From a virus (Duplodnaviria; Heunggongvirae; Uroviricota; Caudoviricetes), in the IMG/VR virus record IMGVR_UViG_3300032053_000031: 64,000 bases of DNA; one strand, 5' to 3'. The number at the start of each line of letters is the position of its first letter. The first letter of the stretch is position 1. Positions 2,846 to 63,091 of the stretch are shown here, one piece after another. The notes beneath the pieces were generated by a model. That model saw nothing but the letters and a program-made list of their open reading frames with translations, was not told the origin of the DNA and ran no database searches. The translations under genes were made by a program, and so were the position numbers.

Positions 2846-2932
2846 GGGTAGGAGGCCATACGGGAATTGGCGGCGGACTGTAAATCCGCTGGGCGAGAGC
2901 CCACGTGAGTTCGATTCTCACCCTACCCACCA
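2846..2932 (+). tRNA. tRNA-Tyr (anticodon GTA), long variable arm, CCA encoded
   Basis: Acceptor gggtagg/cctaccc; anticodon stem gcgga/tccgc with loop ctGTAaa; T-arm gtgag-ttcgatt-ctcac; ends a-cca. Confidence 0.85.
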
Positions 2933-2936
2933 ATTT

Positions 2937-3010
2937 AGGCCTGTGGTGTAATGGTAGCACAAGGGTCTTTGAAGCCCTTAGATAGAGTTCGAGTCTCTAC
3001 AGGCCTGCCA
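2937..3010 (+). tRNA. tRNA-Gln (anticodon TTG), CCA encoded
   Basis: Acceptor aggcctg/caggcct; anticodon stem agggt/gccct with loop ctTTGaa; T-arm tagag-ttcgagt-ctcta; 4 nt after tRNA-Tyr. Confidence 0.8.
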
Positions 3011-3012
3011 AT

Positions 3013-3222
3013 ATGACAATAGGATTTGGATATAGTGGTCCCGGTGATGGTCGGCCGTTTTGTGGAGACGAACATAAGGAACTCATCATTGAACAAGCTC
3101 TCCATCCTAAGTCTTACTATGAAACAATATGGGAGTGGTCGAAGCTAGCTAGTACAGAAGAGCAAGTCGCTTTGGTTATTAAACTCTTAGATGTAGATAA
3201 GATGACTAAGGAGAAACGCTAA
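3013..3222 (+). CDS. hypothetical protein
   Basis: Track ORF starting 2 nt after tRNA-Gln. Confidence 0.4.
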   Translation: MTIGFGYSGPGDGRPFCGDEHKELIIEQALHPKSYYETIWEWSKLASTEEQVALVIKLLDVDKMTKEKR

Positions 3223-3464
3223 TGATCGAGATCCTACAGTGTCCTCATGGTGGCGGCCCGCTCCATCTGTTGGTCGACCTCTGGTGGGTCTTCGTCATAT
3301 GTGTTCCAGGCTTAGGCTTATTTCTCACCAAGATGAAGATCAAAGTTCGTGACTGCTTCTGCTGTAAGGGTCACGACAAGAAGTGCTGCGATCACGAGTG
3401 TGAGAAGGTCGAGCCTAAGTGCAACTGCAATGGTGTGTGCAACCCTTGCAAGTGCAAGCATTAA
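3222..3464 (+). CDS. membrane-anchored metallothionein-like Cys-cluster protein
   Basis: Hydrophobic N-terminal helix, then CFCCKGHDKKCCDHECEKVEPKCNCNGVCNPCKCKH (15 Cys in 36 aa). Confidence 0.5.
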   Translation: MIEILQCPHGGGPLHLLVDLWWVFVICVPGLGLFLTKMKIKVRDCFCCKGHDKKCCDHECEKVEPKCNCNGVCNPCKCKH

Positions 3465-3629
3465 CGATTTGATGTGGGGTGTGTCGCGAGACACATTGCA
3501 AGACGGACTGGGCCATGAACTCCTTACGAAAACGGACCATCAATCCAAGTAGTAAGGAACTAGCGATAAGCCCATTGCGCTGGAGACATTGTTGGGGTGA
3601 TACCTGACATACTTCTCCTGCCCACATCT

Positions 3630-3704
3630 GCCCAGTTAGCTCAACGGTAGAGCACTCCCTTTACGTGGGATAGGTTGTAGGTTCAAATCCTACACTGGGC
3701 ACCA
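3630..3704 (+). tRNA. tRNA-Val (anticodon TAC), CCA encoded
   Basis: Acceptor gcccagt/actgggc; D-arm gctc-aacggta-gagc; anticodon loop ttTACgt; T-arm gtagg-ttcaaat-cctac; ends a-cca. Reading depends on the stem register; an Arg(ACG) reading is rejected. Confidence 0.7.
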
Positions 3705-3712
3705 ATTTAACT

Positions 3713-4141
3713 ATGAACTTCAACGAGATAGTCGATAGCCACCTAAGAAGGTACATAGGTGGACAAGTCTTCTTTACTAGCATAGACTCGTTCATAAAGA
3801 AGAATGTCCAGCTATTCATACCCTTAGTAGAGAAGGCGGAGAAGCTATTTCCCAATAATCCGTTAGTCTTATCGGGAGAGTTCGGCCGTAAGATAGGATT
3901 GGGAAGGAACAGAAACAGAATAATACTTCCTGGTGGCTTGCGTCATATGACAAAGTTCGACAGTATAAGACTCGATAGACCCTTTATATTCGTAGACGAT
4001 AGTTTCTTTTCGGGACGTACTCTAGACGCTATCGAAGTTATAACAGGACAAAGATGCCTTAAGTCCTTCGTCGTCTACAATGGTAATAGAGAGAAGAGAC
4101 CCAACGTACAAGCAATGTTCAGATACTACGACTGGAGATAA
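3713..4141 (+). CDS. phosphoribosyltransferase-domain-like protein
   Basis: FIFVDDSFFSGRTL resembles the PRTase PRPP-binding motif (hydrophobic run, DD, then x-S/T-G-x-T). Confidence 0.35.
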   Translation: MNFNEIVDSHLRRYIGGQVFFTSIDSFIKKNVQLFIPLVEKAEKLFPNNPLVLSGEFGRKIGLGRNRNRIILPGGLRHMTKFDSIRLDRPFIFVDDSFFSGRTLDAIEVITGQRCLKSFVVYNGNREKRPNVQAMFRYYDWR

Positions 4142-4142
4142 C

Positions 4143-5528: not shown

Positions 5529-5751
5529 CCTCTGCTGTCTTATACATCCATATACTAAATGTAAATTCTGTGGTATAGGATACTGCAGCAATTGTTATCT
5601 TATTGTATGGGGAGCATCTCCCATAAAGGATGACGCTGGTTATCCTATTGATCCTCATTCGAATAACATATGGGATAAAAGAATAATGCCCTGTACTGTT
5701 AGAACGACATATATTAATAAACTTAGTCACTGGTTTGGTCCTACAAAATGA
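5515..5751 (+). CDS. LCC-family small Cys-rich protein
   Basis: MEQNNLCCLIHPYTKCKFCGIGYCSNCY. Confidence 0.65.
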   Translation: MEQNNLCCLIHPYTKCKFCGIGYCSNCYLIVWGASPIKDDAGYPIDPHSNNIWDKRIMPCTVRTTYINKLSHWFGPTK

Positions 5752-7136
5752 TAATCTCTGGGTCGCCTCTTCACAAAGTAATCGTAGCCTTACGAGAAGC
5801 TGGTGGTCTGCCTTTAGTCGTAGGTGGTGCTGTTAGAGATACCATTCTCAACAAGTCTATAAAGGACTACGACATCGAGATTCATAAGCTGAATGCGGAA
5901 CAGATAGAAAGGATTCTATCTCAGTTTGGTTCCGTAGACAAAGTGGGAGCAGCTTTCGGAGTCTTCAAGATCGCGGGATGGGATGTCGACTTTAGTGTAC
6001 CTCGTAGGGATAACAAGATAGGGAAGGGTCATAAAGGATTTGATACTGAGTGTGACCCTTTCATGGGAATCGACGAAGCAGCTAAGCGACGTGATCTTAC
6101 TATCAATTCGATGGCATATGATCCCATCGACAATAAACTCTTTGACCCATTCGGTGGTAGAGCGGACCTGGAGAAGAAGGTCTTGAGAGCGACGGATCCT
6201 AAGTCGTTTCTTGAAGACCCTCTTCGAGCTCTCCGCGCAGCACAGTTCGCTGCAAGGTTTGAGATGTGGGCTGATGTAGAGCTCACCGAACTTTGTAAGG
6301 AAGCAGCCCTCTCCGAGCTTCCAGGGGAGAGGATCCTTCCGGAGTTTGAGAAACTTCTGGTGAAGGGAAAGACACCTTCCATTGGTCTTAAGTTTATGCG
6401 TCGTGCTAATCTGTTAAGGTTCTTTCCAGAACTAGAAGTTATGGTAGGTTGTGAACAGGAGTATGAGTGGCATCCCGAAGGGGATGTATGGGATCATACT
6501 CTCTTAGTAGTAGATGCCGCTAGAGGATTAACGGATGACTTTATCGTGATGATGTCTGCACTGTGTCACGATATGGGAAAGCCGTTAACAACGAAGTTCG
6601 AAGATGGAAGAATACGTTCTTTAGGACATGAGGATGCTGGAGTAGAACCAACAAAGAAGTTTCTGGAAAGACTTCGTGCTCCAATAGACTTTACCAAAGC
6701 GGTTACTTGTTTGGTGAAGTATCATCTATCACCTCATCACTTCTATACGAACGGTGCATCTTCGAAAGCAATTCGTAGACTCGCAAGACATCTCGCAGAG
6801 GCTAGTCTCACTCTGCGGGAGATAGAAATTCTAGCGAGGTCTGATCATTATGGAAGGCGTACACCTGATGCTTGGACAGGAGAGTATCCTGCGGGCGATT
6901 GGCTTCTGGAGAAGATGAAAACGTTAGATATAACTTCTGTTCAGAAGGCAAGTAACTGCGTAGTGCTAGGACGCCACGTTCTAAAGCGACCAGGATTCAA
7001 ACCGGGAAAAATTATAGGAGAGATCTTGAGAGCTTGCCAAGAATACGAAGACGAAACAGGAGAGAAAGATCCTGATAGGATACTAGATACAGTCCTCTCA
7101 AAATTCAACTTCCCTGACCATAGAAGCGAGATATGA
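5748..7136 (+). CDS. cca: tRNA nucleotidyltransferase (CCA-adding enzyme) with HD domain
   Basis: LVVGGAVRD head-domain motif of class II polyA polymerase/CCA enzymes; RDLTINS; C-terminal HD motif (ALCHDMGK); 462 aa. Confidence 0.85.
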   Translation: MIISGSPLHKVIVALREAGGLPLVVGGAVRDTILNKSIKDYDIEIHKLNAEQIERILSQFGSVDKVGAAFGVFKIAGWDVDFSVPRRDNKIGKGHKGFDTECDPFMGIDEAAKRRDLTINSMAYDPIDNKLFDPFGGRADLEKKVLRATDPKSFLEDPLRALRAAQFAARFEMWADVELTELCKEAALSELPGERILPEFEKLLVKGKTPSIGLKFMRRANLLRFFPELEVMVGCEQEYEWHPEGDVWDHTLLVVDAARGLTDDFIVMMSALCHDMGKPLTTKFEDGRIRSLGHEDAGVEPTKKFLERLRAPIDFTKAVTCLVKYHLSPHHFYTNGASSKAIRRLARHLAEASLTLREIEILARSDHYGRRTPDAWTGEYPAGDWLLEKMKTLDITSVQKASNCVVLGRHVLKRPGFKPGKIIGEILRACQEYEDETGEKDPDRILDTVLSKFNFPDHRSEI

Positions 7137-8154: not shown

Positions 8155-8475
8155 ATGAAACTCTGTTGCCAGATACACCCGACCATATGGTGCTTTGATT
8201 GTTATAAAGTACTGTGCGGAGATTGTTCCTATCAACATAAGAGACATACTTTTAAGTATGGAGTAGCCTATATTGCTACTCATACTGGTAAGAGCCACCT
8301 CAAGAGGTGGGTTGCTTTCAATAAGATTCTAACCGATTTGCAGGTAGAAGACTATATAGATTTTGGATGGGTAGATACACATGGTGGCCCAGGGAAAGCT
8401 TTTAAGGATGTAGATCTATCTATCAAAAGGTCGAGGTCATGGACATTAGTATCTTACTTGGATAAGCAATGGTAA
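8155..8475 (+). CDS. LCC-family small Cys-rich protein
   Basis: MKLCCQIHPTIWCFDCYKVLCGDCS. Confidence 0.65.
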   Translation: MKLCCQIHPTIWCFDCYKVLCGDCSYQHKRHTFKYGVAYIATHTGKSHLKRWVAFNKILTDLQVEDYIDFGWVDTHGGPGKAFKDVDLSIKRSRSWTLVSYLDKQW

Positions 8476-9414: not shown

Positions 9415-10503
9415 ATGTTCTTCTTAACAGTTCTGCTAATTCCAGTCTTCATCGCTCTCGGCGTTTACATATGCAGTGACAAGCGTATCACGTTCAAGGA
9501 GTTCCTCCTTCACATAGGAATTCAGATCGTGGTAGCGGCCATCAGTGGCGTCATCGTATACTATTCCAATACCTCAGACTATGAGATATGGAATGGAAGG
9601 ATCGCGGCGAAGTCTTCCCAGCACGTGAGCTGTGAACATAGCTACGATTGCTTCTGCTACAATAGCTGTTCGACGGATAGCAACGGGAATCAATCATGCC
9701 ATGAAGTGTGTCAGACCTGTTATGAACACACCTACGATATAGACTGGAACGCACGTACCACCAACGGAGAGTCAATCTATATCTCAAGGGTGGACAGACA
9801 AGGAACCACTGAGCCTCCGCGATGGACCTCTGTCAAAGTAGGAGAGCCTACAGCTGTCTCCCATCACTACGAGAACTATGTAGCAGCTGCTTCCGATTCC
9901 TTATTCAGGAAGGATGGGATAGATCCCAAGTATGCGAGCTCGCTTCTTCCTTATCCTGACTCTATCTACGATCTCTACAGGGTGGATCGCATCGTAGGAG
10001 CTAATACATTTTTAGACAAAGTCCTCTGGCAAAGAGATTTGGACGAACTCAATGCAGACCTTGGCGCAAAGAAACAATGCAACGTGATCCTTTCCTTCGT
10101 CAGGAATCAGCCTGAGGAATACTTCTATGCCCTAGAGAAGTTCTGGAAGAAGGGAAAGAAGAACGACATCGTTGTAGTCTTTGGTCTTGACCAGAAGAAC
10201 AATATTCAGTGGACCAATACGATGGCGTGGACCGATAAACAAATCTTCAAGGTCAAGTTACGTGACGACATCAAAGAGATAGGAGTAGTAGACCGCGAAG
10301 AGATATTCAAAGTCTTACGAAAGGACATAAGTGAATTCTTCGTTCGAAAGCCTATGTCTGATTTCGTCTATCTCCGAATGAGTATCACACCTACCTTCGG
10401 ACAGTGGCTCGTCACGATGATCATAGGTATACTTGTTGCCATAGGCTTAGCCTTCTTCCTGTACAACGAAGATCCCTTCGGAGATAGCTTTAGACAATAC
10501 TAA
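9415..10503 (+). CDS. membrane protein with N- and C-terminal TM helices and a Cys-rich central domain
   Basis: 362 aa; AGGAGG RBS; TM at aa 1-50 and 320-350; CEHSYDCFCYNSCSTDSNGNQSCHEVCQTCYEH. Confidence 0.55.
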   Translation: MFFLTVLLIPVFIALGVYICSDKRITFKEFLLHIGIQIVVAAISGVIVYYSNTSDYEIWNGRIAAKSSQHVSCEHSYDCFCYNSCSTDSNGNQSCHEVCQTCYEHTYDIDWNARTTNGESIYISRVDRQGTTEPPRWTSVKVGEPTAVSHHYENYVAAASDSLFRKDGIDPKYASSLLPYPDSIYDLYRVDRIVGANTFLDKVLWQRDLDELNADLGAKKQCNVILSFVRNQPEEYFYALEKFWKKGKKNDIVVVFGLDQKNNIQWTNTMAWTDKQIFKVKLRDDIKEIGVVDREEIFKVLRKDISEFFVRKPMSDFVYLRMSITPTFGQWLVTMIIGILVAIGLAFFLYNEDPFGDSFRQY

Positions 10504-10504
10504 G

Positions 10505-10741
10505 ATGACACAACAACTCTGTTGTCTGGTAAAAAGGACAGCCGTGTGTTGCAAATGTAGGAAAGCCTTTTGTCTTGAGTGTGCCCTTACAGAAAAAGTT
10601 TATGTCTGTTATAAGTGTGGTAAGGGATATTGCAATAGCTGTTGGATGAAAGATTCAACCACTGGACATGAAAGTTGTCCCGCGCAGGGGTTCTTGAGTG
10701 ATAGACATTCCTATTATATCATTATGGGAGGAGATGTATAA
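10505..10741 (+). CDS. LCC-family small Cys-rich protein
   Basis: MTQQLCCLVKRTAVCCKCRKAFCLECA. Confidence 0.65.
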   Translation: MTQQLCCLVKRTAVCCKCRKAFCLECALTEKVYVCYKCGKGYCNSCWMKDSTTGHESCPAQGFLSDRHSYYIIMGGDV

Positions 10742-10925
10742 CCTAGTGTCTTATCTGTATCGTTAACTCCTCTCAGAAGTGTCATGATTGTGATAGGAGG
10801 ATGTGTGAGGAACATACACTCATTCGTACAATATTTCGTACAAGCAAGTATGGTAATAGATATTGTATGTCTTGGACCCTATGCACGGCGTGTTCGCTGT
10901 TGTATCCTTCCAAAGAGATAAGAAA

Positions 10926-11703: not shown

Positions 11704-11716
11704 GGAGGCACAACTG

Positions 11717-31085: not shown

Positions 31086-31156
31086 GCCGGCGTAGCTCAA
31101 TGGTAGAGCAGCGGTTTTGTAAACCGCCTACGGGGGTTCGATTCCTCTCGCCGGCT
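31086..31156 (+). tRNA. tRNA-Thr (anticodon TGT), CCA not encoded
   Basis: Acceptor gccggcg/cgccggc; D-arm gctc-aatggta-gagc; anticodon stem gcggt/accgc with loop ttTGTaa; T-loop ttcgatt. Confidence 0.7.
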
Positions 31157-35600: not shown

Positions 35601-36719
35601 ATGCAAAACTTAAACGCTTACTTTATCGATCATATGTTCTGGGACTTCCCTAAGCTTCTTGAAGCTCATGCGGAAAGGAATCTGGTTAAGCTAAAGCAGT
35701 CCAAAAGGTTCCCTCATCTGTCTATACTTCATTATTCCGATGAGATAATCTACAGCAGAGCTACATGGACTCCCTTTGCGAAGGCGTGTCGAGGCGTTAT
35801 AATCGATCGGAAGAACAAGAAGATTCTAGCTAAGCCATTCTCTAAGTTCTTTAATTTAGGGGAAAAGGAAGCCCCTTCTATAAAGGATTTGGAAAAAAAG
35901 TCCGGATACACGGTTACCGAAAAGTTAGACGGCTCCATGATCATAGCCTACTATGATGAAGAAACCAATAAGTTTTATATGTCCACGAAGGGAGATCTTG
36001 ACTCTGAGCATGGTCAGTATGCAACGCCGTTGTTTCCTCCGCAGTTAATGGATAAGAAATTAATAACTTCTCATACTCTGATGTTCGAACTGATATGTAA
36101 AAAGTATCAGATCGTTATTCCTTATGATAAGAAAGGCTATGAAGAGGGGCTTTATCTTATTGGCATAAGAGAAAATACATCTGAGAAGTTATTCTCTCCC
36201 AAGGAAGTACAGGCCTTTGCGAAAGAATTTGGTCTGCGAACGTATAAGACGTACGACTATCCTACTCTCGATTCTATAGTCGAAGGAGTAAAGACTCTCC
36301 CCTTTACCGAAGAGGGCTTCGTTGTCAGATTCGATGGCGACGAGACTATGGTAAAGATAAAGTCACCTGAATATTTACGAGTACACAGGTTCGTTTCTAA
36401 TCTTACATCTCGCAACCTTTTAGATATCGTTATCGAAGGCGAAGAGAAAAATGTACTAGACAATCTATATCTAGTACCTGAAGAGTACCGTGAAGATGTT
36501 AGGAACGCTATAGAAGGCTATGTCAAGGATGCTTACATCTTTAGAAAAGAGTGTTACGACCTCTTTGCCAAAGCCCCTAAGGGGAGCAGAAAAGAATATG
36601 CTCTTTGGGTAGCTCATTCAACTCCTACGGACTATAAAAAGTTTTTGTTCAACATCTTTGATAACGAACCGATAGAACTAAAGGACATCTACATTCACTT
36701 CAGAAAGACAAAGCGATGA
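35601..36719 (+). CDS. ATP-dependent RNA/DNA ligase-family nucleotidyltransferase (Rnl2-like)
   Basis: Motif I KLDGS (KxDG); motif IV-like EGFVVR; motif V VKIKS; 372 aa; start is an internal Met of track ORF 35535..36719. Confidence 0.55.
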   Translation: MQNLNAYFIDHMFWDFPKLLEAHAERNLVKLKQSKRFPHLSILHYSDEIIYSRATWTPFAKACRGVIIDRKNKKILAKPFSKFFNLGEKEAPSIKDLEKKSGYTVTEKLDGSMIIAYYDEETNKFYMSTKGDLDSEHGQYATPLFPPQLMDKKLITSHTLMFELICKKYQIVIPYDKKGYEEGLYLIGIRENTSEKLFSPKEVQAFAKEFGLRTYKTYDYPTLDSIVEGVKTLPFTEEGFVVRFDGDETMVKIKSPEYLRVHRFVSNLTSRNLLDIVIEGEEKNVLDNLYLVPEEYREDVRNAIEGYVKDAYIFRKECYDLFAKAPKGSRKEYALWVAHSTPTDYKKFLFNIFDNEPIELKDIYIHFRKTKR

Positions 36720-38769: not shown

Positions 38770-39005
38770 ATAATCTATGTTGTCTTGTGCATCCATTTGT
38801 TTGGTGTTACAAATGTCAGATGATACTCTGCTGGGAATGTTGGAGTAGAATCTACGGCGATATATTCAGGTCCAGTGATGATAATTGTGAACCCTCAATA
38901 CCTGGAGATATGCCAAGTGGCTATTGGTTTCATTCTAACTTTAGTCCCAATTGTTGGTTAAAGGGTAATGATATTGATGTGAATGAAAGTGGGAGAACTA
39001 AATGA
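38766..39005 (+). CDS. LCC-family small Cys-rich protein
   Basis: MNNLCCLVHPFVWCYKCQMILCWECW. Confidence 0.65.
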   Translation: MNNLCCLVHPFVWCYKCQMILCWECWSRIYGDIFRSSDDNCEPSIPGDMPSGYWFHSNFSPNCWLKGNDIDVNESGRTK

Positions 39006-40108
39006 CAATGTCAAACTGGCCCGTACTATATAAGCAAACAAGCACTGGAAAAGTACAACAGTGGAAGGTTTCCGTTGAAGAGAGTGTGGTCTTCACTGAA
39101 TATGGACTAGTAGATGGTAAACTTCAAACGACAGTTGATAGAGTTAAAGAAGGAAAGAACCTTGGAAGATCTAATGAGACCACTCCGGATTCTCAAGCTC
39201 TTCTTCAAGCTCAGCAGTGCTTCGACGGCAAGCTGAAAGAGGGCTACGTTGAGAATAAAGACGTAGCTGCGACGACAAAGAATACGCTTGATGCGATCGA
39301 GCCCATGTTAGCTCATCCCATTGAGAAGAAAGAAAAGTATGTAACCTATCCGGCTCTTGGCCAGCCGAAGTTAGATGGTCTTCGGTGTATCGCCATAATG
39401 AAGAATGGAAAGGTTCGATTATTCTCTAGGACGCAGAAGGAATATAAGACTCTTCCTCACATCATTGCTGAGATAGAGAAGTTGTTCGGAGGACATAAGA
39501 ATTTAATTCTCGACGGAGAACTATACAATCACAGTCTGAAGAAAGACTTTAACAAGATCACTTCTCTCATTAAAAGAGATGAGGTACATCCATCTCATAA
39601 AGATATTCAGTATCACATCTACGACGTAGTCGCTAAGGGTTCATATCCCGTAAGAACAAATCCACTTCAAGTCCTTTCCGGAGACTTCTGTAAGAAAGTC
39701 GAAACGGTCCTCATTGAGTCGAGGGTGGAGTTGGAAAAGTATCAAGCTCTGTGCGTCGAGAAAGGTTATGAAGGGTGTATGTACCGCCGCATGGACGCAG
39801 AGTATGAGCACAAGAGGAGCTCTGGACTTTTAAAGGTAAAGTCATTCGTTGACGCAGAGTTCAAAATAGTTGACATGGAGGAGGGTTGTGGTAAGCTGAT
39901 GGGTAAGGTTGGAGCTTTCTACTGTGAAATAGGTGGACAGCGATTTAAGGCGAAACCAGCCTGTACCGAAGAACAATCCCAGGACTATTGGATTCGCAAG
40001 ACTGATTGTATTGGTAAAATGGCTACTATCAAATATCAGAATCTAACTCCGGCAGGAATTCCTCGTTTTCCTATATTAAAGACTATAATAGATTATGATT
40101 ACAGATAA
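39002..40108 (+). CDS. ATP-dependent DNA ligase
   Basis: Motif I KLDGLR (KxDGxR); motif III ILDGELY; motif V LLKVK; 368 aa. Confidence 0.7.
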   Translation: MTMSNWPVLYKQTSTGKVQQWKVSVEESVVFTEYGLVDGKLQTTVDRVKEGKNLGRSNETTPDSQALLQAQQCFDGKLKEGYVENKDVAATTKNTLDAIEPMLAHPIEKKEKYVTYPALGQPKLDGLRCIAIMKNGKVRLFSRTQKEYKTLPHIIAEIEKLFGGHKNLILDGELYNHSLKKDFNKITSLIKRDEVHPSHKDIQYHIYDVVAKGSYPVRTNPLQVLSGDFCKKVETVLIESRVELEKYQALCVEKGYEGCMYRRMDAEYEHKRSSGLLKVKSFVDAEFKIVDMEEGCGKLMGKVGAFYCEIGGQRFKAKPACTEEQSQDYWIRKTDCIGKMATIKYQNLTPAGIPRFPILKTIIDYDYR

Positions 40109-42744: not shown

Positions 42745-43755
42745 ATGGCGACCTTCAAAGCTGAAGTAGTAAAAGTAGAAGTAACTAATCATCCGAATGC
42801 AGATCGCCTTGACTTAATCAAGGTAAAGGGCTGGCAGTGTGTCAGTCAGAAGGGTCAGTTCAAGACGGGCGATTTAGCAGTCTATCTACCTATCGATTCA
42901 GTATTACCCGAAGCATTAGTAAAGGCTCTCGGCATTGAAAAGATGTATCACAAGAAGCTTCGTACCATTAAGCTTCGTGGATCCATCTCTCAGGGGATAG
43001 TCGCCAAGTTAGACATCAATCCTTCATATCCTACAATGTACGAGGGCGGTGTCACTGAGGGTATTGACTTCACTCAAGATCTAGGTATCACTAAATGGGA
43101 AGAGCCCATCCCCGTGCAAATGAGGGGAAAGGTTAGGCAGACTGATCCTAACTTTATTCGTTATACGGACATTGAGAACTACAAGAACTACCCCAATTCT
43201 TATTCAGAAGGTATAATGGTAGTCGCAACGGAAAAGATACATGGAACTAACTTCCGAGTAGCTAACATAGATGGAGTGATCCATGTAGGTAGCCATCGGA
43301 TGGATCTCTGCGAGGAAGAAAACAATCTCTATTGGAGAGCTGCAGAAATTCTAAAGGCCAAAGAGAAGCTTCTTCCTGGAGAGCAAGTCTTTGCGGAGGT
43401 ATATGGTTCTGGTGTTCAAGATTTGAACTACGGATTAAAGAGTGGACAGATAAATGTTGCTATCTTTGATATTTGGAAGGACTCAAAGTTCTTAGACTAC
43501 ACTGACTACATACAATATCTTCTAGCTAAAGGCTGGCAAGATCTAGCGACACCTGTTGTCTACATGGGAGAATGGAATTTAGATCTTCCCAAGATGTCGG
43601 ATGGTCAATCAATTCTTTGTCCTGATCAAATTCGGGAAGGAATTGTTATTCGTCCAATGCAAGAAGCATGGAGTCCTTATTTAAACGGGAGACTTATTAT
43701 TAAATGTGTAAGTGACACTTACCTTTTAAGAAAAGAAGGAACAGAGAGGCACTAA
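42745..43755 (+). CDS. RNA ligase-family protein with N-terminal tRNA-binding-like OB domain (Rnl5/DraRnl-like)
   Basis: N-terminal OB-fold signature VVKVEVTNHPNADRLDLIKV...GDLAVYLP; nucleotidyltransferase motif I-like EKIHGTN (Kx[DHN]G). Confidence 0.5.
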   Translation: MATFKAEVVKVEVTNHPNADRLDLIKVKGWQCVSQKGQFKTGDLAVYLPIDSVLPEALVKALGIEKMYHKKLRTIKLRGSISQGIVAKLDINPSYPTMYEGGVTEGIDFTQDLGITKWEEPIPVQMRGKVRQTDPNFIRYTDIENYKNYPNSYSEGIMVVATEKIHGTNFRVANIDGVIHVGSHRMDLCEEENNLYWRAAEILKAKEKLLPGEQVFAEVYGSGVQDLNYGLKSGQINVAIFDIWKDSKFLDYTDYIQYLLAKGWQDLATPVVYMGEWNLDLPKMSDGQSILCPDQIREGIVIRPMQEAWSPYLNGRLIIKCVSDTYLLRKEGTERH

Positions 43756-45949: not shown

Positions 45950-46282
45950 ATGCGAAACAATTGTTTAGTATGTGCAATAAATCCTCGTGTTAGATGTTTA
46001 ACTTGCAATGCAGGTCTCTGCACAGAGTGTAGAGATAAAGAATTGCTATCTCCTGGACAAAGGCGTAAACGCGCTGGAGGGGATGAATACTCTCAATGTC
46101 CAATGTGTAAGACGTGGGGAGGTTGGATTGATCCAGAATACAACGCAAGAGAGAAACTTCCCTCATATGGTATACACACCTGTGATTGTGGTATTACAAT
46201 GGTAATAACTTTTGCAGGTGAACAACCTTGTCTATGTAATAAACTATTTAAAGGGGAATATACCCATGCCCGTCAAAGGTGA
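45950..46282 (+). CDS. LCC-family (CLxC variant) small Cys-rich protein
   Basis: MRNNCLVCAINPRVRCLTCNAGLCTECR. Confidence 0.55.
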   Translation: MRNNCLVCAINPRVRCLTCNAGLCTECRDKELLSPGQRRKRAGGDEYSQCPMCKTWGGWIDPEYNAREKLPSYGIHTCDCGITMVITFAGEQPCLCNKLFKGEYTHARQR

Positions 46283-47447
46283 GTTAAAAGGAAATGGCGT
46301 TCCGGTTAAACTTTGGACTGAACTTGCTTCGGTAGAGTCTGAAGCGTTAACCCAGTTAAAGAATGTATCAGGACTACCCTTCGTAATGAATCACGTTGCG
46401 GTCATGCCCGATTGTCATGTGGGAAAAGGAGCTACAGTTGGCTCGGTTATTGCTACCCAGGGAGCAGTCATTCCTTCAGCGGTCGGAGTAGATATAGGTT
46501 GTGGAATGTCGGCTGTTAAGCTAAAAGGGATTACGGTTAGTAGTCTTGGAGACTTAGCTGTCCTTCGCCATTCGATTGAGAGATCAGTTCCTACTGGCTT
46601 TAGCGGTAATAGTCGTGTGGGTAAGGATGTTAAGGGTTGGGAAGGTTGGGATGAATTCTCAAAGCTTCATCCTGACATTCAGAAGGAAATGAGTGACGCT
46701 CAGACTAAACTTGGTTCTCTGGGTGGAGGCAATCACTTTATTGAAATCTGTAAGGACCCTACTGATAATGTATGGGTTATGTTACATTCCGGTTCTCGTA
46801 ACATAGGATTGAAGATTGCTAACATCTATATCAAGAAGGCGAAAGAATTAATGTCACAGATGTATATTCAACTTCCCGATAGAGAATTAGCATATTTGCC
46901 TGCAACTGATATTTCGTATAGTAATTATCTCCGGGATCTTAACTGGGCTCAGTCTTATGCATTCAAGAATAGAGAACTGATGCGTGAAAGGATCTTGAAA
47001 GATATCTTCTTCGCCGTTGGAAAAGAGCCCTTCGACTTAGAGATGGAAGTAAACTGTCATCATAACTTTGCCGCAATGGAGCATCATTATGGACAGAATG
47101 TCCTTATCACTCGTAAGGGCGCAATTCGGGCTCGCGTTGGTGAGTTGGGTATTATTCCTGGGTCTATGGGTACTAAATCGTTCATCGTGCGTGGTCTGGG
47201 CAATCCCTTGTCTTTTGAGTCTAGCTCACATGGTGCTGGCCGGAGAATGTCTAGATCGGCAGCAAAGAGGACTTTCACGGAAGAAGATATCGCGAAACAA
47301 TTAGCTGGTATCGAGTGTCGTAAGGACAAAGGTATCATCGATGAACTTCCTGGAGCTTACAAAGATGTGGATGTAGTAATGGCTAACCAGAACGATCTGG
47401 TAGAAGTAGTAACGGAACTGAAGCAGATCATGTGTATCAAGGGATAA
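46266..47447 (+). CDS. rtcB: RtcB RNA-splicing/repair ligase
   Basis: Metal-site motifs PDCHVGKG, GGGNHFIEI, HNFAA, SSSHGAGRR (C-terminal His); start is an internal Met of track ORF 46212..47447; 393 aa. Confidence 0.9.
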   Translation: MPVKGELKGNGVPVKLWTELASVESEALTQLKNVSGLPFVMNHVAVMPDCHVGKGATVGSVIATQGAVIPSAVGVDIGCGMSAVKLKGITVSSLGDLAVLRHSIERSVPTGFSGNSRVGKDVKGWEGWDEFSKLHPDIQKEMSDAQTKLGSLGGGNHFIEICKDPTDNVWVMLHSGSRNIGLKIANIYIKKAKELMSQMYIQLPDRELAYLPATDISYSNYLRDLNWAQSYAFKNRELMRERILKDIFFAVGKEPFDLEMEVNCHHNFAAMEHHYGQNVLITRKGAIRARVGELGIIPGSMGTKSFIVRGLGNPLSFESSSHGAGRRMSRSAAKRTFTEEDIAKQLAGIECRKDKGIIDELPGAYKDVDVVMANQNDLVEVVTELKQIMCIKG

Positions 47448-53756: not shown

Positions 53757-54425
53757 ATGAAGATTGTAGCGATTGCTGATATCCATTGTCAGTTTGACAA
53801 GATAACAATTCCTCCCTGCGACTTATTAATAAATGCAGGAGATCTTACGTGGGAGGGAACATTACAACAGATCGCCCAATTTAATTATTGGGCTGGTACC
53901 TTACAGCATGTTAAACATTTTGTAACAATCGCAGGCAATCATGACTTCTTATTTCAGGATCAACCTAGTCTAGCTAGGAGCTTAATAACTAATTGTGACT
54001 ACATTGAGGACCAGACTATCATAGTAAATGGAATCAAGATATATGGAGCACCGTGGACTCCTAGGTTCCACGACTGGGCATTTAATGCAGATAGAGGTGA
54101 AGTAATTAAGAAACATTGGGATAAAATTCCTGAGGGGATAGATATACTCTTAACACATGGTCCTGCATATGGATACGGCGACAAAGTAATTCGTGGAAGT
54201 GGTGAACGTTGGGAAGATGGAGAAGACTTCGCTATCGGAGTAGAATATCTAGGATGTAAGGATCTGTATGATGCGCTCGTAAGAGTAAAGCCTAAGTATC
54301 ATATCTTTGGGCATATACACCAAGGTTTCGGCATCTGGAGAAATGACTTCACAACATTCATCAATGCTTCCGTATGTACTAAGGAATATAATCCTATCAA
54401 CCCTCCGATAATGTTTGAAATATGA
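53757..54425 (+). CDS. calcineurin-like metallophosphoesterase
   Basis: Motifs DIHCQ (D-x-H), GDLTWEG (GD), GNHD, GHIH; AGGAG RBS. Confidence 0.8.
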   Translation: MKIVAIADIHCQFDKITIPPCDLLINAGDLTWEGTLQQIAQFNYWAGTLQHVKHFVTIAGNHDFLFQDQPSLARSLITNCDYIEDQTIIVNGIKIYGAPWTPRFHDWAFNADRGEVIKKHWDKIPEGIDILLTHGPAYGYGDKVIRGSGERWEDGEDFAIGVEYLGCKDLYDALVRVKPKYHIFGHIHQGFGIWRNDFTTFINASVCTKEYNPINPPIMFEI

Positions 54426-55066: not shown

Positions 55067-55371
55067 AACAAAAACTTTGTTGTCAAATTCATAAAGACTT
55101 GATTTGCTGTACATGTGGATTAGTGATATGTGAAGATTGTTACAACTTGTGTGGACCCGCTACTACCAATAAAGCAGCTTTCCATCTGGAGATTCGATCT
55201 CAGGAGAGATGGTGTCCTCAATGCCTGGAAAAAAGAAAATTAACAGTCAACTGGTTGGATTACAATTACTGTAAGGGATGTTGGACAGGTAAGATATTCG
55301 GGTGTTTTAAATTCCCATTAAAAGACAAAGATCGGCCTAAGTGGGCCAAGAAGAAAAAAACATGGAAGTAA
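55063..55371 (+). CDS. LCC-family small Cys-rich protein
   Basis: MKQKLCCQIHKDLICCTCGLVICEDCY. Confidence 0.65.
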   Translation: MKQKLCCQIHKDLICCTCGLVICEDCYNLCGPATTNKAAFHLEIRSQERWCPQCLEKRKLTVNWLDYNYCKGCWTGKIFGCFKFPLKDKDRPKWAKKKKTWK

Positions 55372-55943
55372 TTGATTCTAATTTCTGTTATCCTCCAAAG
55401 CCTTTATATGTACCACCCAGTTCATCTATATTTGATGAATTAGATTCTAACGAAGAGTGGGTGGCTGAAGTAAAAAAGAATGGTTGGCGCTGTATGATTA
55501 GGGTAACAGTTAACGGAGATATAATTTTATGGACAAGAAGAAAGACAGTGGAGAGAAGTCCATTACCGAATCTTCGCATCGAATTGAAAAAGTTATCACT
55601 GCCACAGGATACTATTTTAGATGGAGAACTTCTTGAACATCGAGGGATGACAAAAGAAACGATTATGATATGGGGGATGTTTCGTTGGGCTGGCAAATGG
55701 ACTAACACCATTCCTTATAAAGAAATTCGCGAACGGATTGAAAAGATTGTTCCAGAAAACAACCCTTATATTATAAAGCCCAAATTCTGTTTCACAGGAA
55801 AGAAGAAGTTCTACTATGATGTCTTAAAAGAAAGTGAAGAGAATGAAGGTATTGTGATAAAGAAATTAGCTGCACCGGTTCCTTTTTCTTGGAATGATTC
55901 TGAGAAGATACGCACATGGATCAAAATTAAAGAGAATATGTAA
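55362..55943 (+). CDS. minimal ligase-like nucleotidyltransferase (adenylyltransferase domain only, about 193 aa)
   Basis: Motif I KKNGWR (Kx[DN]GxR); motif III ILDGELL; motif IV EGIVIK; motif V WIKIK. No OB domain. Confidence 0.5.
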   Translation: MEVIDSNFCYPPKPLYVPPSSSIFDELDSNEEWVAEVKKNGWRCMIRVTVNGDIILWTRRKTVERSPLPNLRIELKKLSLPQDTILDGELLEHRGMTKETIMIWGMFRWAGKWTNTIPYKEIRERIEKIVPENNPYIIKPKFCFTGKKKFYYDVLKESEENEGIVIKKLAAPVPFSWNDSEKIRTWIKIKENM

Positions 55944-56368: not shown

Positions 56369-56776
56369 ATGACAAATATATTTGTCTATGGAACATTACG
56401 AAAGGGAGGTCCTTTACACAGATACTTTGAAGACAAGGAGATATCTCCTATTGGTATGTTTCATACTCATCCCATATATACATTATACGACTGCGGGTGT
56501 CCATGTCTAGCGGAGGGTGGTACTACTAGTGTAGTCGGAGAGATATATAAGACGGACTTAGAAGATGTAATGGATGTTCATTCAATGGAGCTATATGCGG
56601 GCTATAAGTTTAAACCCGTTGCGCTTGCAGACTTCGAAGAGCTTACCTATGCATACTTTCAAAGTCCAAAAGAATATGGATTAACTCCAATAGTAATAGA
56701 AAGCGGCGACTATATAGCATATAGATATGAAGATAAAGATAGAGAAGCATACAAAGAACGACCTGATAACGGATAA
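56369..56776 (+). CDS. gamma-glutamyl cyclotransferase (AIG2/GGCT)-like protein
   Basis: N-terminal IFVYGTLRKGGPLHRYF matches the GGCT-fold YGTL motif. Confidence 0.45.
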   Translation: MTNIFVYGTLRKGGPLHRYFEDKEISPIGMFHTHPIYTLYDCGCPCLAEGGTTSVVGEIYKTDLEDVMDVHSMELYAGYKFKPVALADFEELTYAYFQSPKEYGLTPIVIESGDYIAYRYEDKDREAYKERPDNG

Positions 56777-59185: not shown

Positions 59186-59578
59186 ATGAATAAACAAGAC
59201 GAAGAAATCGCGAAGGCTCTCAAAGTAAGACCTTACATCTTAGCTGTAGACGTAGACGGTTGTCTAGCTGAGAAAATTGAATGGCAAGGCTTTGAAGTAA
59301 TAGGTAAGCCTATCCCTTCGGTAGTCGAATACGTCCGTGAGGCTAAAGCTCGTGGATGTTATATTACTATTAACACCTGCAGAGTTACTACATTACATAA
59401 TAAAATTAGTCCAGAGTCCTTAGATGCTCTGCGTAAGTGGCTTAAGGATAATGATGTTCCTTACGATGAAATCTGGGCGGCCGCCGGAAAGCCTTATGCA
59501 AATGAATACGTAGACGACCGTGCATTGAATCCATTCTGTTCTGAATGTCAGAAGAAAAAGTTCACCTTCACTACTTAA
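59186..59578 (+). CDS. HAD-superfamily phosphatase-like small protein
   Basis: ILAVDVDGCL carries the DxDG motif I of HAD phosphatases, as in polynucleotide 3'-phosphatases; 130 aa. Confidence 0.4.
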   Translation: MNKQDEEIAKALKVRPYILAVDVDGCLAEKIEWQGFEVIGKPIPSVVEYVREAKARGCYITINTCRVTTLHNKISPESLDALRKWLKDNDVPYDEIWAAAGKPYANEYVDDRALNPFCSECQKKKFTFTT

Positions 59579-59593: not shown

Positions 59594-60190
59594 ATGACTG
59601 AGACATTCTTTACATCAGATACACATTACTATCATAAAAATATTATTAAGTATTGTAAACGACCATTTCAGGACGTAGCTGAAATGAATCAAGTAATGGT
59701 TGATCGTTGGAATAGTCGCGTGAATGAAAACGATACAGTTTTTCATCTTGGCGATTTTGGTTTCGTTCATAAAGGTGAAGGATCCAATATCCTTCAAATG
59801 CTTAAAGGAAAGAAGATTCTTATCCTCGGTAGCCACGATAGGAAAGCTTCTTATATGTCTGAAATGGGATTTGATGAGGTCTATACCCAATTCGATTGGA
59901 AAGGATGGTTACTTCATCATGTACCCATCAAAGTAAAACAACCTCTTCTTTGTGGACACGTCCACGAGAAGTGGTGCCGCCTCGGCAAGTTTATAATCAA
60001 CGTTGGCGTTGACCAATGGAATTTCACACCTCAAACAATAGACGAATTAATTAAAGCGCCTGAAGAATCATTTGAAATACATTGCCCGAATTGTAATGCT
60101 ATTATCCGACGTATGGAAGATAACCGCGAACATTGGTCCGGGAGATGCCTTCACGCTTTAAATGAACAGCTTACTAAAGACGATATGTAA
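59594..60190 (+). CDS. calcineurin-like metallophosphoesterase
   Basis: Motifs TSDTHYYH, GDFGF, GSHD, GHVHE. Confidence 0.75.
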   Translation: MTETFFTSDTHYYHKNIIKYCKRPFQDVAEMNQVMVDRWNSRVNENDTVFHLGDFGFVHKGEGSNILQMLKGKKILILGSHDRKASYMSEMGFDEVYTQFDWKGWLLHHVPIKVKQPLLCGHVHEKWCRLGKFIINVGVDQWNFTPQTIDELIKAPEESFEIHCPNCNAIIRRMEDNREHWSGRCLHALNEQLTKDDM

Positions 60191-60993: not shown

Positions 60994-60997
60994 TAAT

Positions 60998-61204
60998 ATG
61001 AACTGCATCAAGTGTAAGAAAGCTATCCCTGAAGCAAGGATACAAGCACTCCCTGAAACAAAGACATGTGTTCAATGTTCAAATGTTCAGCCTTATAGAG
61101 CTATTATTTCTGGTTCCTACAAGCATAAGATGACCGAAACTCATATTATAAAATCAGACGATCCTATCTTAGATTACTACGAGGAACAATGGCAAGGAAG
61201 GTAA
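60998..61204 (+). CDS. DksA/TraR-family C4 zinc-finger protein
   Basis: CIKCKKAIPEARIQALPETKTCVQC matches the TraR/DksA C4 finger (CxxC-x17-CxxC around the IP.aRl..lP motif). Confidence 0.5.
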   Translation: MNCIKCKKAIPEARIQALPETKTCVQCSNVQPYRAIISGSYKHKMTETHIIKSDDPILDYYEEQWQGR

Positions 61205-61452
61205 GGAGAAAGAAAATGGAAACGATGCTGGTTAGAATGGAGAGGGACTTTAAAGTCCCTGGTACTAATGAAATTCTTTTAGAGGGGACAGTTGGTTCCG
61301 TTGTAGATGGTAAGATAGTTTTCTATGCAGCTCAGGTAATTAATTTACCTAACGGCGAACTTCCTGTCTATTCTTTTAATCTATTCAACAAGGCAATGTA
61401 TAGCCCCGTCGATCCTCCAGAGCCTCATATTAGAGAGGCGGGATGGATGTAA
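61189..61452 (+). CDS. hypothetical protein
   Basis: Track ORF. Confidence 0.4.
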   Translation: MARKVRRKKMETMLVRMERDFKVPGTNEILLEGTVGSVVDGKIVFYAAQVINLPNGELPVYSFNLFNKAMYSPVDPPEPHIREAGWM

Positions 61453-61658
61453 TGGAAGAAAAAATTGTTACAGACTTCTTCGGTACACCTATCGGTAGAA
61501 TGGTAAAGAGTGGTGAACGTTGGGAAGTAAGTGACTTTACTGGAAGACCTTTGGGGAGTGCTGATGAGAATGGTACAAGAGATTACTTCGGTGTTCCTAT
61601 TGCACAAGGAAGTCATCCTGAGTTGTTATTTGACCCTGAGTATAACTCAAACTTATGA
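61443..61658 (+). CDS. hypothetical protein with internal duplicated segment
   Basis: DFFGTPIGRMVKSGERWEVSDFTGRPLGSADENGTRDYFGVPIAQG contains [DF]F.G.P[IL]G-type repeats. Confidence 0.4.
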   Translation: MDVMEEKIVTDFFGTPIGRMVKSGERWEVSDFTGRPLGSADENGTRDYFGVPIAQGSHPELLFDPEYNSNL

Positions 61659-61915
61659 ATGATATAAAACCCGATCTTCGGTCTATTTCAGATAAGGAAA
61701 GACATAAGAAGATGCGAAAGAGATCTGGTGATGTAACTTCAAGGTCTAAATTAGTGTCGTTTCTCTATATACTAATGAGAGATCATCTACCTGCGGGAGA
61801 GGTTGAAGATATTATGCTTCACGATGTCGATGTACTTCCCAAGGACGAAAATTGTAGTTATACAAATGGTTGGCTGGCTAGGTATGCAGAGGACCTAGCA
61901 AAGAGATTAAAATGA
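61655..61915 (+). CDS. hypothetical protein
   Basis: Track ORF. Confidence 0.4.
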   Translation: MNDIKPDLRSISDKERHKKMRKRSGDVTSRSKLVSFLYILMRDHLPAGEVEDIMLHDVDVLPKDENCSYTNGWLARYAEDLAKRLK

Positions 61916-62151
61916 ACAAGCTTCAATCAGAGTATGCACACGCACAATGGCGGGCTCACGAACGTTATGGTATAACTCTGACTAAGGAACTTCATAACAC
62001 CCTCAGAGGTAAGATAAAGAGACAAGCAGCTAAGTTTCTTTATAGACGCACGTTACGCGTTACTATCTGGGAGGTGGAACACGAAGGAGAAACGTATAAA
62101 GTAGCCTACGACAAAATAAGACATTGTATTATTACGTTTCTCCCGAAATAG
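61912..62151 (+). CDS. hypothetical protein
   Basis: Track ORF. Confidence 0.4.
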   Translation: MNKLQSEYAHAQWRAHERYGITLTKELHNTLRGKIKRQAAKFLYRRTLRVTIWEVEHEGETYKVAYDKIRHCIITFLPK

Positions 62152-62330
62152 GAGGGAATATGCTTCTTTGGGGACTTAAAGACGAAAAAGGAAGATTAGT
62201 AAGTAAGGAAGGGGTACCTATGCTTTTTAAGACAAAAGTGTGGGCAAACAAATACTATATGTCTTGCATACCTCAGGGCATTGAATGTAAGATGGTTAGG
62301 GTAGTGGTAGAAGAGCTAGTAGGAGGATAA
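62124..62330 (+). CDS. hypothetical protein
   Basis: Track ORF. Confidence 0.35.
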   Translation: MYYYVSPEIGGNMLLWGLKDEKGRLVSKEGVPMLFKTKVWANKYYMSCIPQGIECKMVRVVVEELVGG

Positions 62331-62332
62331 TT

Positions 62333-63091
62333 ATGTCTAGGGACGATTTAGGTTGTCGTATGAAAGAGCAGTATGAGGATAGAACTCGCTTCTTTGTCCC
62401 TCGTAGGACCTGGACTATCGTTCGTGTAGATGGTAAAGCTTTTCATACCTTAACTAGAAACTGTGCTCGGCCATATGACGAAAAGCTTATGGATGTGATG
62501 AGGGACACAGCTATCGAGATGGTAAAGGAAATGCAGGGAGCTAACCTTGCATATGTTCAGTCCGATGAGATATCCATTCTTCTAACCGACTTTGCAAAAG
62601 AGACTACATCTGCGTGGTTTGATGGTAACATACAGAAGATATCATCTGTCTCTGCATCTATGGCTACTGCTTTTTTTAATGAAAAAGCCGGCGATGAGAG
62701 TGAAGCATTATTTGATGACGTAGCCTTCTTTGATGGAAGATGTTTCACAATTCCAGACCCTATCGAAGTAGAAAACTATTTTATCTGGCGACAGGTAGAT
62801 GCTACGAGAAACAGTATTCAAATGGCTGCTCAAGCTATCTTTAGTCATAAGGAACTTCTTAATAAAAATAATGCAGACATGCAGGAAATGTTATTCCAAA
62901 AAGGAATTAACTGGAATGACTATTCCTCCAGGTGTAAGAGGGGTCAAGTTATTGTAAAAGTTCCTTGCATCATAACTACTCCTCAGGGCTTACAAGCGGA
63001 TGGTACAAGATGGGACACTCCAGAAACGCCTATCTTCACACAGGATAGAGACTTTCTCAGAAAGCATATACCAGTACAAGCGTCATGGTAA
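62333..63091 (+). CDS. Thg1-like protein (tRNA-His guanylyltransferase family; 3'-5' polymerase / tRNA 5'-end repair)
   Basis: VRVDGKAFH, YVQSDEISILL and FIWRQVDATRNS correspond to conserved Thg1/TLP blocks (VRxDGxxFH, QSDExS, SWRQxD); 252 aa. Confidence 0.7.
   Translation: MSRDDLGCRMKEQYEDRTRFFVPRRTWTIVRVDGKAFHTLTRNCARPYDEKLMDVMRDTAIEMVKEMQGANLAYVQSDEISILLTDFAKETTSAWFDGNIQKISSVSASMATAFFNEKAGDESEALFDDVAFFDGRCFTIPDPIEVENYFIWRQVDATRNSIQMAAQAIFSHKELLNKNNADMQEMLFQKGINWNDYSSRCKRGQVIVKVPCIITTPQGLQADGTRWDTPETPIFTQDRDFLRKHIPVQASW

Follow-up and report, generated by a model that had tools for sequence, protein, structure and literature searches.

RNA-repair genes in the window

The window analysed here, a 64,000-nucleotide stretch of IMG/VR virus record IMGVR_UViG_3300032053_000031, carries four tRNA genes together with genes for the RNA ligase RtcB, two further RNA ligases, a CCA-adding-type nucleotidyltransferase and a Thg1-like polymerase. 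An earlier examination of the letters alone (hereafter the sequence-only reading) had described this set as an unusually complete toolkit for mending tRNAs cleaved by host nucleases. We followed up that description on the window and 9 kb of downstream sequence (73 kb in total), scanning all plus-strand open reading frames (ORFs) of at least 85 aa with Pfam and PHROG. The ten ORFs listed in the sequence-only reading are all intact reading frames at the positions assigned to them, and most have plausible ribosome-binding sites. RtcB, the two RNA ligases, the CCA-adding-type enzyme with its HD domain, the Thg1-like protein and RlaP, a nucleotidyltransferase encoded just past the window end, each combine membership of a recognised family with intact catalytic residues.

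All four of the tRNA genes previously named were recovered by both ARAGORN and Rfam, and all four fold into cloverleaves. They lie on the plus strand and comprise tRNA-Tyr (GTA; 2846..2932; 49 bits against Rfam RF00005), whose sequence ends in ACCA, tRNA-Gln (TTG; 2937..3010), which follows 4 nt from tRNA-Tyr, tRNA-Val (TAC; 3630..3704) and tRNA-Thr (TGT; 31086..31156). CCA is encoded in the first three. The tRNA-Thr gene has a U discriminator followed by AACA and no encoded CCA, and therefore provides at least one plain maturation substrate for a CCA-adding enzyme. Neither tRNA-His nor an intron-containing tRNA was found in the window by ARAGORN or Rfam.

The gene at 5748..7136 (+) encodes a class II tRNA nucleotidyltransferase of the CCA-adding type that carries an HD phosphohydrolase domain at its C-terminus, in agreement with its first description. 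Both parts are matched in Pfam (PF01743, 3.4e-20; PF01966 for HD), PHROG 2244 (3.9e-75) and CCA enzymes in the PDB (1.9e-20) are also matched, and the motifs GGAVRD, DYD, RRD, EDPLR and H...HD, including those of the head domain, are present. The best NCBIfam model, NF008137 ('multifunctional CCA addition/repair protein', E. coli-type), was matched at 2e-59 but under its equivalog cutoff, as every equivalog cutoff was missed (201 versus 451 bits), and among the PDB neighbours CCA-adding enzymes stand side by side with A-adding and poly(A) enzymes, with little difference in E-value. Judging from the protein sequence, CCA specificity is likely, as against an A-adding, CC-adding or poly(A) polymerase activity. 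Yakunin et al. reportedly described, in 2004, phosphoesterase activities of the HD domain of the E. coli CCA enzyme.

RtcB, a ligase of 3'-phosphate or 2',3'-cyclic phosphate to 5'-OH RNA ends, is encoded at 46266..47447 (+). The assignment is borne out by a match to PF01139 over the full length of the model (6.8e-121; model positions 1-426), by PHROG 1075 (5e-136) and by alignment with T. thermophilus TTHA1785 (2EPG), in which GVDIGCG, GNHF, HSGSR, HN and SSHGAGR are all kept, so that the Asp/Cys/His metal ligands and the GMP-accepting His of SSHGAGR are retained. An ORF of 185 aa (47450-48007) begins 2 nt past the RtcB stop codon and was considered as a conserved RtcB partner, a candidate that we rejected as an ORFan given that a search of 5.8 billion proteins returned no homologue but itself.

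The ligase at 35601..36719 (+) had been labelled Rnl2-like, and here the typing has to be corrected, as it belongs to the Rnl1 family of ATP-dependent RNA ligases (T4 RnlA/gp63-type). It scores 95.7 bits against PF09511 (4.9e-27; cutoff 28.3 bits) versus 27.2 bits against PF09414, has no match to TIGR02307, and covers positions 12-352 of the 377 in the PHROG 562 profile (1.4e-57), the Rnl1-specific C-terminal domain included. The equivalog model TIGR02308 was matched (1.4e-22) with 80 bits against a cutoff of 242, and the protein is therefore a member of the Rnl1 family rather than a T4 orthologue. The ligase motifs TEKLDGS (motif I), MFELI, EGFVVRF and VKIKS are in the sequence, and motif I aligns with that of the fungal Trl1 ligase. 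The corrected typing suits a repair function better than the original one, because Rnl1 is the classical ligase of anticodon-loop repair.

The second ATP-dependent RNA ligase, at 42745..43755 (+), is of the Rnl5 (DraRnl-NgrRnl) type, with an N-terminal OB domain and a nucleotidyltransferase domain, as had been predicted. Pfam detects the PHA02142 OB domain (PF21189) plus RNA_ligase (PF09414), TIGR02306 (RNA_lig_DRB0094, the D. radiodurans family) is matched with 196 bits, over its curated cutoff of 151, and the alignment with Naegleria NgrRnl (5COT; 2.2e-25, residues 12-318) spans both domains and places EKIHGTN (motif I) at the K170 position. DraRnl and NgrRnl seal nicks in which RNA is the 3'-OH strand (PMC4408790, PMC1807946). 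In RtcB and both of these RNA ligases the motifs are intact and the catalytic His or Lys is in place.

At 62333..63091 (+) lies the gene for a bacterial-type Thg1-like protein (TLP), a template-dependent 3'-5' RNA polymerase family (PF04446, 9.1e-30; PHROG 4717, 5e-81). It matches B. thuringiensis BtTLP (4KGK) at 8.6e-59, compared with 1e-12 to 1e-16 for eukaryotic Thg1, and has both carboxylate motifs, RVDGKAF and QSDE, which upholds the family proposed in the sequence-only reading. In vitro, bacterial and archaeal Thg1-like proteins prefer to repair 5'-truncated tRNAs (PMC6471195). Downstream, with nothing but a small ORF and an HNH endonuclease in between, is RlaP (window-equivalent 64019-64954, starting 19 bp past the window end), identified by PF10127, the 'RNA repair pathway' Pol-beta family (4.5e-19; 69.6 bits versus a cutoff of 23), and by PHROG 388 (1e-62).

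The surroundings of the Thg1-like gene differ in a relative, L087, which is ~60% identical and syntenic with window positions 48.8-62.1 kb. There, the homologue of 61912-62151 and RlaP adjoin each other (18323-19394 in L087), whereas in the window the Thg1-like gene, a truncated EamA-like ORF and an opposite-strand HNH_3 endonuclease (62333-64000; L001 10001-12622) intervene between the two. This arrangement suggests that the Thg1-like gene is a recent mobile insertion.

Distribution and clustering of the repair families

Each of the four families that we counted among the 50,697 phage records of INPHARED is rare, with homologues of RtcB in 695 records, of the Thg1-like protein in 162, of the Rnl5-like ligase in 300 and of the Rnl1-like ligase in 801 (0.3-1.6% each), and the presence of four such families in one 64-kb stretch is therefore non-random. 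All four are commoner in big genomes. The best INPHARED matches of the RNA enzymes are phage genomes, at 30-54% identity.

Within the window and just beyond it, the genes form two loose groups, one of Rnl1, Rnl5 and RtcB within 12 kb, the other of the Thg1-like gene and RlaP with the genes for a small HAD protein and a small phosphoesterase (MPE2), both described below, within 6 kb. At 80 IMG/VR loci centred on a Thg1-like gene, the 10 kb around that gene contained an Rnl5-like ligase in 11 cases, RlaP in 5, a CCA-type enzyme in 3 and Rnl1 in 2. Retrieval of viral loci seeded with RtcB yielded 5 distant loci only, and nothing informative came from the RtcB neighbourhoods of Stenotrophomonas phage ANB28 and Pseudomonas phage Psa21. 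A tight arrangement was found in an unrelated, high-GC viral contig, L095 (IMGVR_UViG_3300036795_000133), where RtcB, a small metallophosphoesterase and RlaP abut on the same strand (9983-12555).

Other listed enzymes

The remaining five genes of the sequence-only reading are intact as well, and for these family and role have to be judged separately. The ATP-dependent DNA ligase at 39002..40108 (+), 368 aa with nucleotidyltransferase and OB domains (PF01068 and PF14743; PHROG 114, 1.1e-78; NF006592, 8e-30), is correctly named, but it is a standard enzyme of DNA metabolism and stands outside the RNA kit.

The protein of 193 aa at 55362..55943 (+), previously described as a ligase-like nucleotidyltransferase, is a stand-alone DNA-ligase-type nucleotidyltransferase domain, recognised by its family motifs, its AlphaFold2 (AF2) model and Foldseek. 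It is no gene fragment and belongs to a conserved family of similar length: the 50 homologous clusters are uniformly ~190-207 aa, stop just past motif V and, in a 35-sequence family alignment, keep ligase motifs I, III, IV and V invariant (ExKxxGWR, DGEL, EGxVxK, WxKxK). Relatives include L087 10001-10576, L089 6001-6618 and L090 2897-3481. No OB domain (motif VI) was found in the protein, whose AF2 model (pLDDT 95.7) is a single adenylation-domain fold, with DNA ligase adenylation domains (Lig1, archaeal, African swine fever virus, LigD) as top Foldseek matches at TM ~0.74; a sequence-only PDB search gave noise (neuroglobin) and weak DNA-ligase matches. The homologue in the ~60%-identical relative adjoins a full-length DNA ligase, and a distant homologue has PC4, the DNA polymerase III beta clamp and ParB as neighbours. 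Everything points to DNA rather than tRNA as the predicted substrate, and although the ligase motifs stood up to scrutiny, the RNA-repair role did not. Our literature search found no description of a stand-alone ligase-like family of this kind lacking OB.

The two metallophosphoesterases (MPE1 and MPE2) were both placed in the correct family by the sequence-only reading, with different consequences for RNA repair. MPE1 (53757..54425, +; PF00149, 6.7e-12) is a class III metallophosphodiesterase closely homologous to rat MPPED2 (3RL4; 3.7e-51). MPPED family members hydrolyse cAMP and cGMP (PMC10547211), and by homology MPE1 is more likely to act on cyclic nucleotides, as a phosphodiesterase, than to heal RNA. 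A place in the 'counter-nucleotide' class of jumbo phages, among whose systems calcineurin-like phosphodiesterases are counted (PMC7824862, section 3.4.8), would suit it no less well than a part in RNA end healing. As parts of a tRNA repair set we considered and rejected three proteins: the MPPED2-like enzyme, the DNA ligase and the 193-aa nucleotidyltransferase.

MPE2 (59594..60190, +) is a small metallophosphoesterase of the PHROG 547/aq_1665 type (PHROG 547, 5.5e-42; Aquifex aq_1665, 1XM7, 1.4e-11) with the motifs SDTH..H, GD, GSHD and GHVH and a sub-threshold Pfam match. Based on the gene neighbourhood in L095, we retain it as a candidate RNA end-healing enzyme. A small HAD-like phosphatase of 130 aa (59186..59578, +; PHROG 1238, 7.6e-22) is encoded 16 bp upstream of MPE2. 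The DxDG motif noted earlier (DVDGC) and downstream HAD motifs are present, and Pfam gave no match; beyond these the protein has weak matches only (PHROG 415 'polynucleotide kinase', 7e-7; PDB 1XPJ, 1e-7; HAD-IIIA, 1e-4), which place it tentatively among HAD phosphatases and do not assign it to RNA healing. Taken over the list as a whole, the families of RtcB, the Rnl5-type ligase, the DNA ligase, the CCA-adding-type enzyme, the Thg1-like protein, both metallophosphoesterases and the 193-aa ligase-like nucleotidyltransferase were confirmed, whereas the Rnl2 label fell and the HAD protein is weakly typed.

A probable counter-defence complement and its alternatives

We consider it probable that the window encodes a multi-enzyme RNA (mainly tRNA) repair complement beside phage tRNA genes, and that this complement serves counter-defence, a role which we infer from the established properties of the enzyme families. 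RtcB would join the ends that metal-independent anticodon nucleases leave, 2',3'-cyclic phosphate or 3'-phosphate on one side and 5'-OH on the other, making healing unnecessary, while the Rnl1-family ligase would close 3'-OH/5'-phosphate breaks in tRNA loops and the Rnl5/DraRnl-type ligase equivalent nicks in duplex RNA. The CCA-adding enzyme could restore trimmed 3' ends besides maturing the phage tRNA-Thr, and its HD domain could strip blocking phosphates. The Thg1-like polymerase would rebuild acceptor stems truncated at the 5' end, with the 3' strand serving as its template. RlaP is predicted to put back, ahead of ligation, the nucleotides that were cut out at a break, and MPE2 is a candidate for 3'-end healing. 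Together with replacement tRNAs, these enzymes may keep translation going in the face of tRNA cleavage by host defences. Other or unassigned roles would fall to their neighbours, namely the DNA ligase, the 193-aa domain, the MPPED2-like phosphodiesterase and the HAD protein.

The combination of RtcB, classical ligases, CCA addition and 5'-end repair proposed in the sequence-only reading is thus supported by family membership, catalytic motifs and jumbo-phage precedent, once the DNA ligase, the 193-aa protein, MPE1 and the HAD protein are removed from it. The proposed link to particular nucleases (PrrC, RloC, colicins, VapC, HEPN) fares less well, as nothing ties the kit to any of these and the link was drawn from the behaviour of such families elsewhere. 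We conclude that the earlier interpretation is partly supported, being right in outline but over-inclusive.

Several observations weigh against this reading. The first concerns the healing arm: polynucleotide kinase, archease, 2H phosphoesterase, KptA, RtcA and Hen1 were not found in the 73 kb by Pfam and PHROG scans of plus-strand ORFs of at least 85 aa or by a Walker-A regular expression, which in ORFs longer than 75 aa found two AAA ATPases only. The source of the 5'-phosphate ends that Rnl1 and Rnl5 would need after a classical anticodon-nuclease cut is left unexplained, and healing and sealing by the classical 5'-P/3'-OH route, as originally claimed, has its ligases but not its 5'-kinase. 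A polynucleotide kinase may be encoded elsewhere in the genome. It could also be speculated that the absence of a kinase reflects a division of labour, with RtcB handling breaks made by metal-independent nucleases and the ATP-dependent ligases handling 5'-P/3'-OH breaks made by metal-dependent ones. Secondly, the repair genes do not form one operon but are scattered across 58 kb amid dozens of small ORFs. Thirdly, a DNA ligase lies within 10 kb of the Thg1-like gene in 12 of the 80 IMG/VR loci, about as frequently as Rnl5, and proximity is therefore weak and unspecific evidence of joint function. Fourthly, the stretch of L087 that we examined has neither a Thg1-like gene nor a HAD gene nor either phosphoesterase, from which it follows that the set was built gene by gene and varies among related phages, rather than being a unit. 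Finally, ordinary maturation, in which the CCA-adding enzyme and the Thg1-like protein both have roles, would also account for the presence of these two.

This last point leads to an alternative possibility, namely that the genes serve the housekeeping of the phage's own tRNAs, with CCA maturation, 5' finishing by the Thg1-like protein or G-1 addition to a tRNA-His encoded elsewhere, and ligases that process intron-containing or permuted transcripts. The tRNA-Thr gene, the only one of the four that does not encode CCA, is in keeping with such a role. Nevertheless, we regard this explanation as unlikely, given that a CCA-adding enzyme is normally supplied by the host, that no tRNA-His or intron-containing tRNA is seen in the window, that bacterial-type Thg1-like proteins favour 5'-truncated tRNAs over G-1 addition in vitro (PMC6471195), and that three different RNA ligases plus RlaP would be excessive for a handful of tRNAs.

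The scattering of the genes over 58 kb and the gaps at the syntenic position in the relative are also what would be expected of a loose collection of accessory genes, each acquired on its own and doing its own job, with no coordination between them: DNA repair or replication for the DNA ligase, the 193-aa domain and a PdeM-like phosphoesterase, degradation of cyclic-nucleotide immune signals for the MPPED2-like enzyme, and miscellaneous tasks for the RNA enzymes. The HNH homing endonuclease adjoining the Thg1-like gene, the DNA-ligase fold and DNA-replication neighbours of the 193-aa protein, the homology of MPE1 to MPPED2, and the listing of calcineurin-like phosphodiesterases among the counter-nucleotide systems of jumbo phages (PMC7824862), agree with this view. 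However, it does not readily account for five or six RNA-end enzymes, each rare in phages, sharing a 64-kb stretch with tRNA genes, nor for the co-occurrence of subsets of them in unrelated viral contigs, including the tight RtcB-phosphoesterase-RlaP cassette, and on balance a mere assortment seems quite unlikely.

A more ambitious version of the repair reading would have the window encode kinase-independent, all-round tRNA rebuilding, in which three distinct ligases are combined with CCA addition at the 3' end, Thg1-like extension at the 5' end and RlaP acting at internal breaks, with MPE2, the HAD protein and the 193-aa protein as new healing or sealing components. We find this improbable; if it were true, the 193-aa proteins would make up the smallest family of ligase-like enzymes known, with an undescribed substrate.

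Viral setting and neighbouring genes

That the region is not viral, and derives instead from a bacterial chromosome, plasmid or other mobile element with a cellular RNA-repair island, is most improbable. In favour of such an origin, capsid, tail and terminase genes were not seen in the 73 kb examined, the contig is absent from INPHARED and the closest IMG/VR homologues of the Thg1-like protein or RtcB are no nearer than ~60% identity. Against it, coding sequence makes up ~90% of the window, with 158 plus-strand ORFs that are mostly tiny and have no database match, RtcB, the Thg1-like protein and the Rnl5-type ligase find their best matches in phage genomes, PHROG families are matched strongly, large phages typically carry HNH_3 endonucleases, a phiEco32-type COOH-NH2 ligase and tRNA genes such as those seen here, and no cellular housekeeping genes are present.

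Nearly all genes lie on one strand, G+C content ranges over 39-49% and GC skew is positive along the whole window. A megablast search of INPHARED with 13 kb of the window found no relative at the DNA level, which indicates that there is no close cultured relative. An ENA metagenome contig of 117,657 bp (ERZ27247916 k141_6164802) is identical to the window over an 11.7-kb overlap, and window genes are present also in other ENA, JGI and Logan assemblies. We have therefore treated the window as a stretch of accessory genes from a large tailed phage, as yet uncultured, with a contig of at least 117 kb.

Other neighbours typical of large phages are MoxR/VWA, ClpP with ClpS, and radical-SAM enzymes. 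A MoxR-type AAA_5 ATPase and a DUF2201 (metallopeptidase plus VWA-like) protein, at 17621-18682 and 21485-22693, form a recurrent pair. ClpP (7e-75; 41830-42471), a separate AAA ATPase (43757-44731) and a ClpS-like adaptor (24786-25079) could constitute a phage-borne proteolysis module; the ClpP gene lies between those for the DNA ligase and the Rnl5 ligase. The phiEco32-type COOH-NH2 ligase, a class II glutamine amidotransferase (GATase) and a gamma-glutamyl cyclotransferase-like (GGACT) gene, at 49847-52070 and 56369-56776, are predicted to form a peptide or amide-bond modification system, and the synteny of all three is kept in L087. Two radical-SAM enzymes, of which one is weakly QueE-like, are encoded together with an SPFH/band-7 protein, a type IV pilin-like protein whose N-terminus has a methylation motif, and an acyl-carrier-like protein at 26848-28227, 33379-34221, 29375-30256, 32515-32790 and 40129-40491.

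About a quarter of the window genes belong to a single paralogous family of small proteins (~60-110 aa), of which a strict pattern finds 36 copies and a relaxed one 42. They share the N-terminal motif M-x(2-6)-LCC-x-V-N/K/H-x(3-9)-C-x2-C-x4-C-x2-C, and many of them flank the RNA-repair genes; examples are 833-1108, 8155-8475, 13321-13608, 19147-19410, 26104-26427, 35342-35599, 36716-37000, 37000-37311, 40488-40757, 45338-45628, 47938-48228 and 55063-55371. These cysteine-rich proteins have no match in Pfam or PHROG and, alongside the 193-aa ligase-like family lacking OB, are the most unusual side observation of the analysis. A profile of the domain retrieved 162 representatives among 1.84 billion proteins, nearly all of them short and with the domain N-terminal, and it is probably a zinc-binding module.

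Significance and comparison with known systems

If the counter-defence role of the repair complement is as we propose, the phage invests in several non-redundant routes of tRNA mending, which would imply that its hosts deploy several RNA-cutting defences, and the window would add a further well-documented case to the arms race over translation. The window is also a compact source of divergent RtcB, Rnl1, Rnl5 and Thg1-like enzymes that could serve as tools for RNA ligation and 5' extension. Neither the concept nor the set of enzymes is new to the jumbo-phage literature, and no new question is opened by them. To place the set, we compared it with known RNA repair systems.

Bacterial RNA repair operons (RtcBA; Pnkp-Hen1) have RtcB chemistry in common with the window, and a metallophosphoesterase carries out 3'-end healing in CthPnkp (PMC2190708, PMC7790460). 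RtcA, RtcR, Hen1 and the fused kinase-phosphatase-ligase of these operons were not found here, and the setting is viral instead of cellular.

The logic of phage T4, in which breaks made in tRNA by a host anticodon nuclease are mended by the phage, is set out in PMC2610378. T4, whose Pnkp and Rnl1 act on PrrC-cleaved tRNA-Lys, resembles the window in having an Rnl1-family ligase with the gp63 architecture. Unlike T4, the window and its downstream 9 kb have neither Pnkp nor another P-loop kinase, only the weakly typed stand-alone HAD protein; conversely, RtcB, which bypasses end healing, and the end-rebuilding polymerases are lacking in T4.

In cultured Bacillus phages of the BM10/BM15, Bc431v3 and PK-3 type (~140-165 kb), RtcB occurs together with a tRNA nucleotidyltransferase and a Thg1-like protein (PMC6292376), and in INPHARED PK-3 has an RnlA-family ligase as well as the Thg1-like protein. 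Their Thg1-like proteins are the closest cultured-phage matches to that of the window, at 46-48% identity. The window adds the Rnl5-type ligase and RlaP and belongs to an unrelated, uncultured lineage. The cassette of L095 contains homologues of the window's RtcB (45%), MPE2 (27%) and RlaP (36%), and whereas its three genes abut in operon-like fashion, MPE2 and RlaP are ~4 kb apart in the window and RtcB lies 12 kb upstream of MPE2.

The nearest precedent is the RNA repair of jumbo phages, in which tRNAs, RtcB and ATP-dependent ligases occur in any combination (Iyer, Anantharaman, Krishnan, Burroughs & Aravind 2021, Viruses 13:63, PMC7824862, section 3.4.9, based on Burroughs & Aravind 2016). 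BcepSaruman and BcepSauron, for instance, have RtcB, Rnl1 and Rnl2; RlaP is the commonest accompanying nucleotidyltransferase, CCA-adding enzymes are found in several of these phages and Thg1 is sporadic (PMC7824862). The sets were read as counter-measures to host tRNA cleavage, with ligases coexisting to deal with different RNase effectors (PMC7824862). The window resembles them in its tRNAs, RtcB, ATP-dependent RNA ligases, RlaP, CCA-adding enzyme and Thg1-like protein. It differs in two respects: Rnl2 is the ligase highlighted in jumbo phages, whereas the window has the Rnl5/DraRnl type instead, and kinases and phosphoesterases, which there are generally congruent with ATP-dependent ligases (PMC7824862), are not matched here by any kinase in 73 kb. 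The description 'unusually complete' is therefore apt in that the set is rich and each family rare, but it overstates the case in that comparable combinations are known in jumbo phages and the kinase is missing. The set of the window is at the rich end of the known jumbo-phage spectrum and is otherwise of the same kind.

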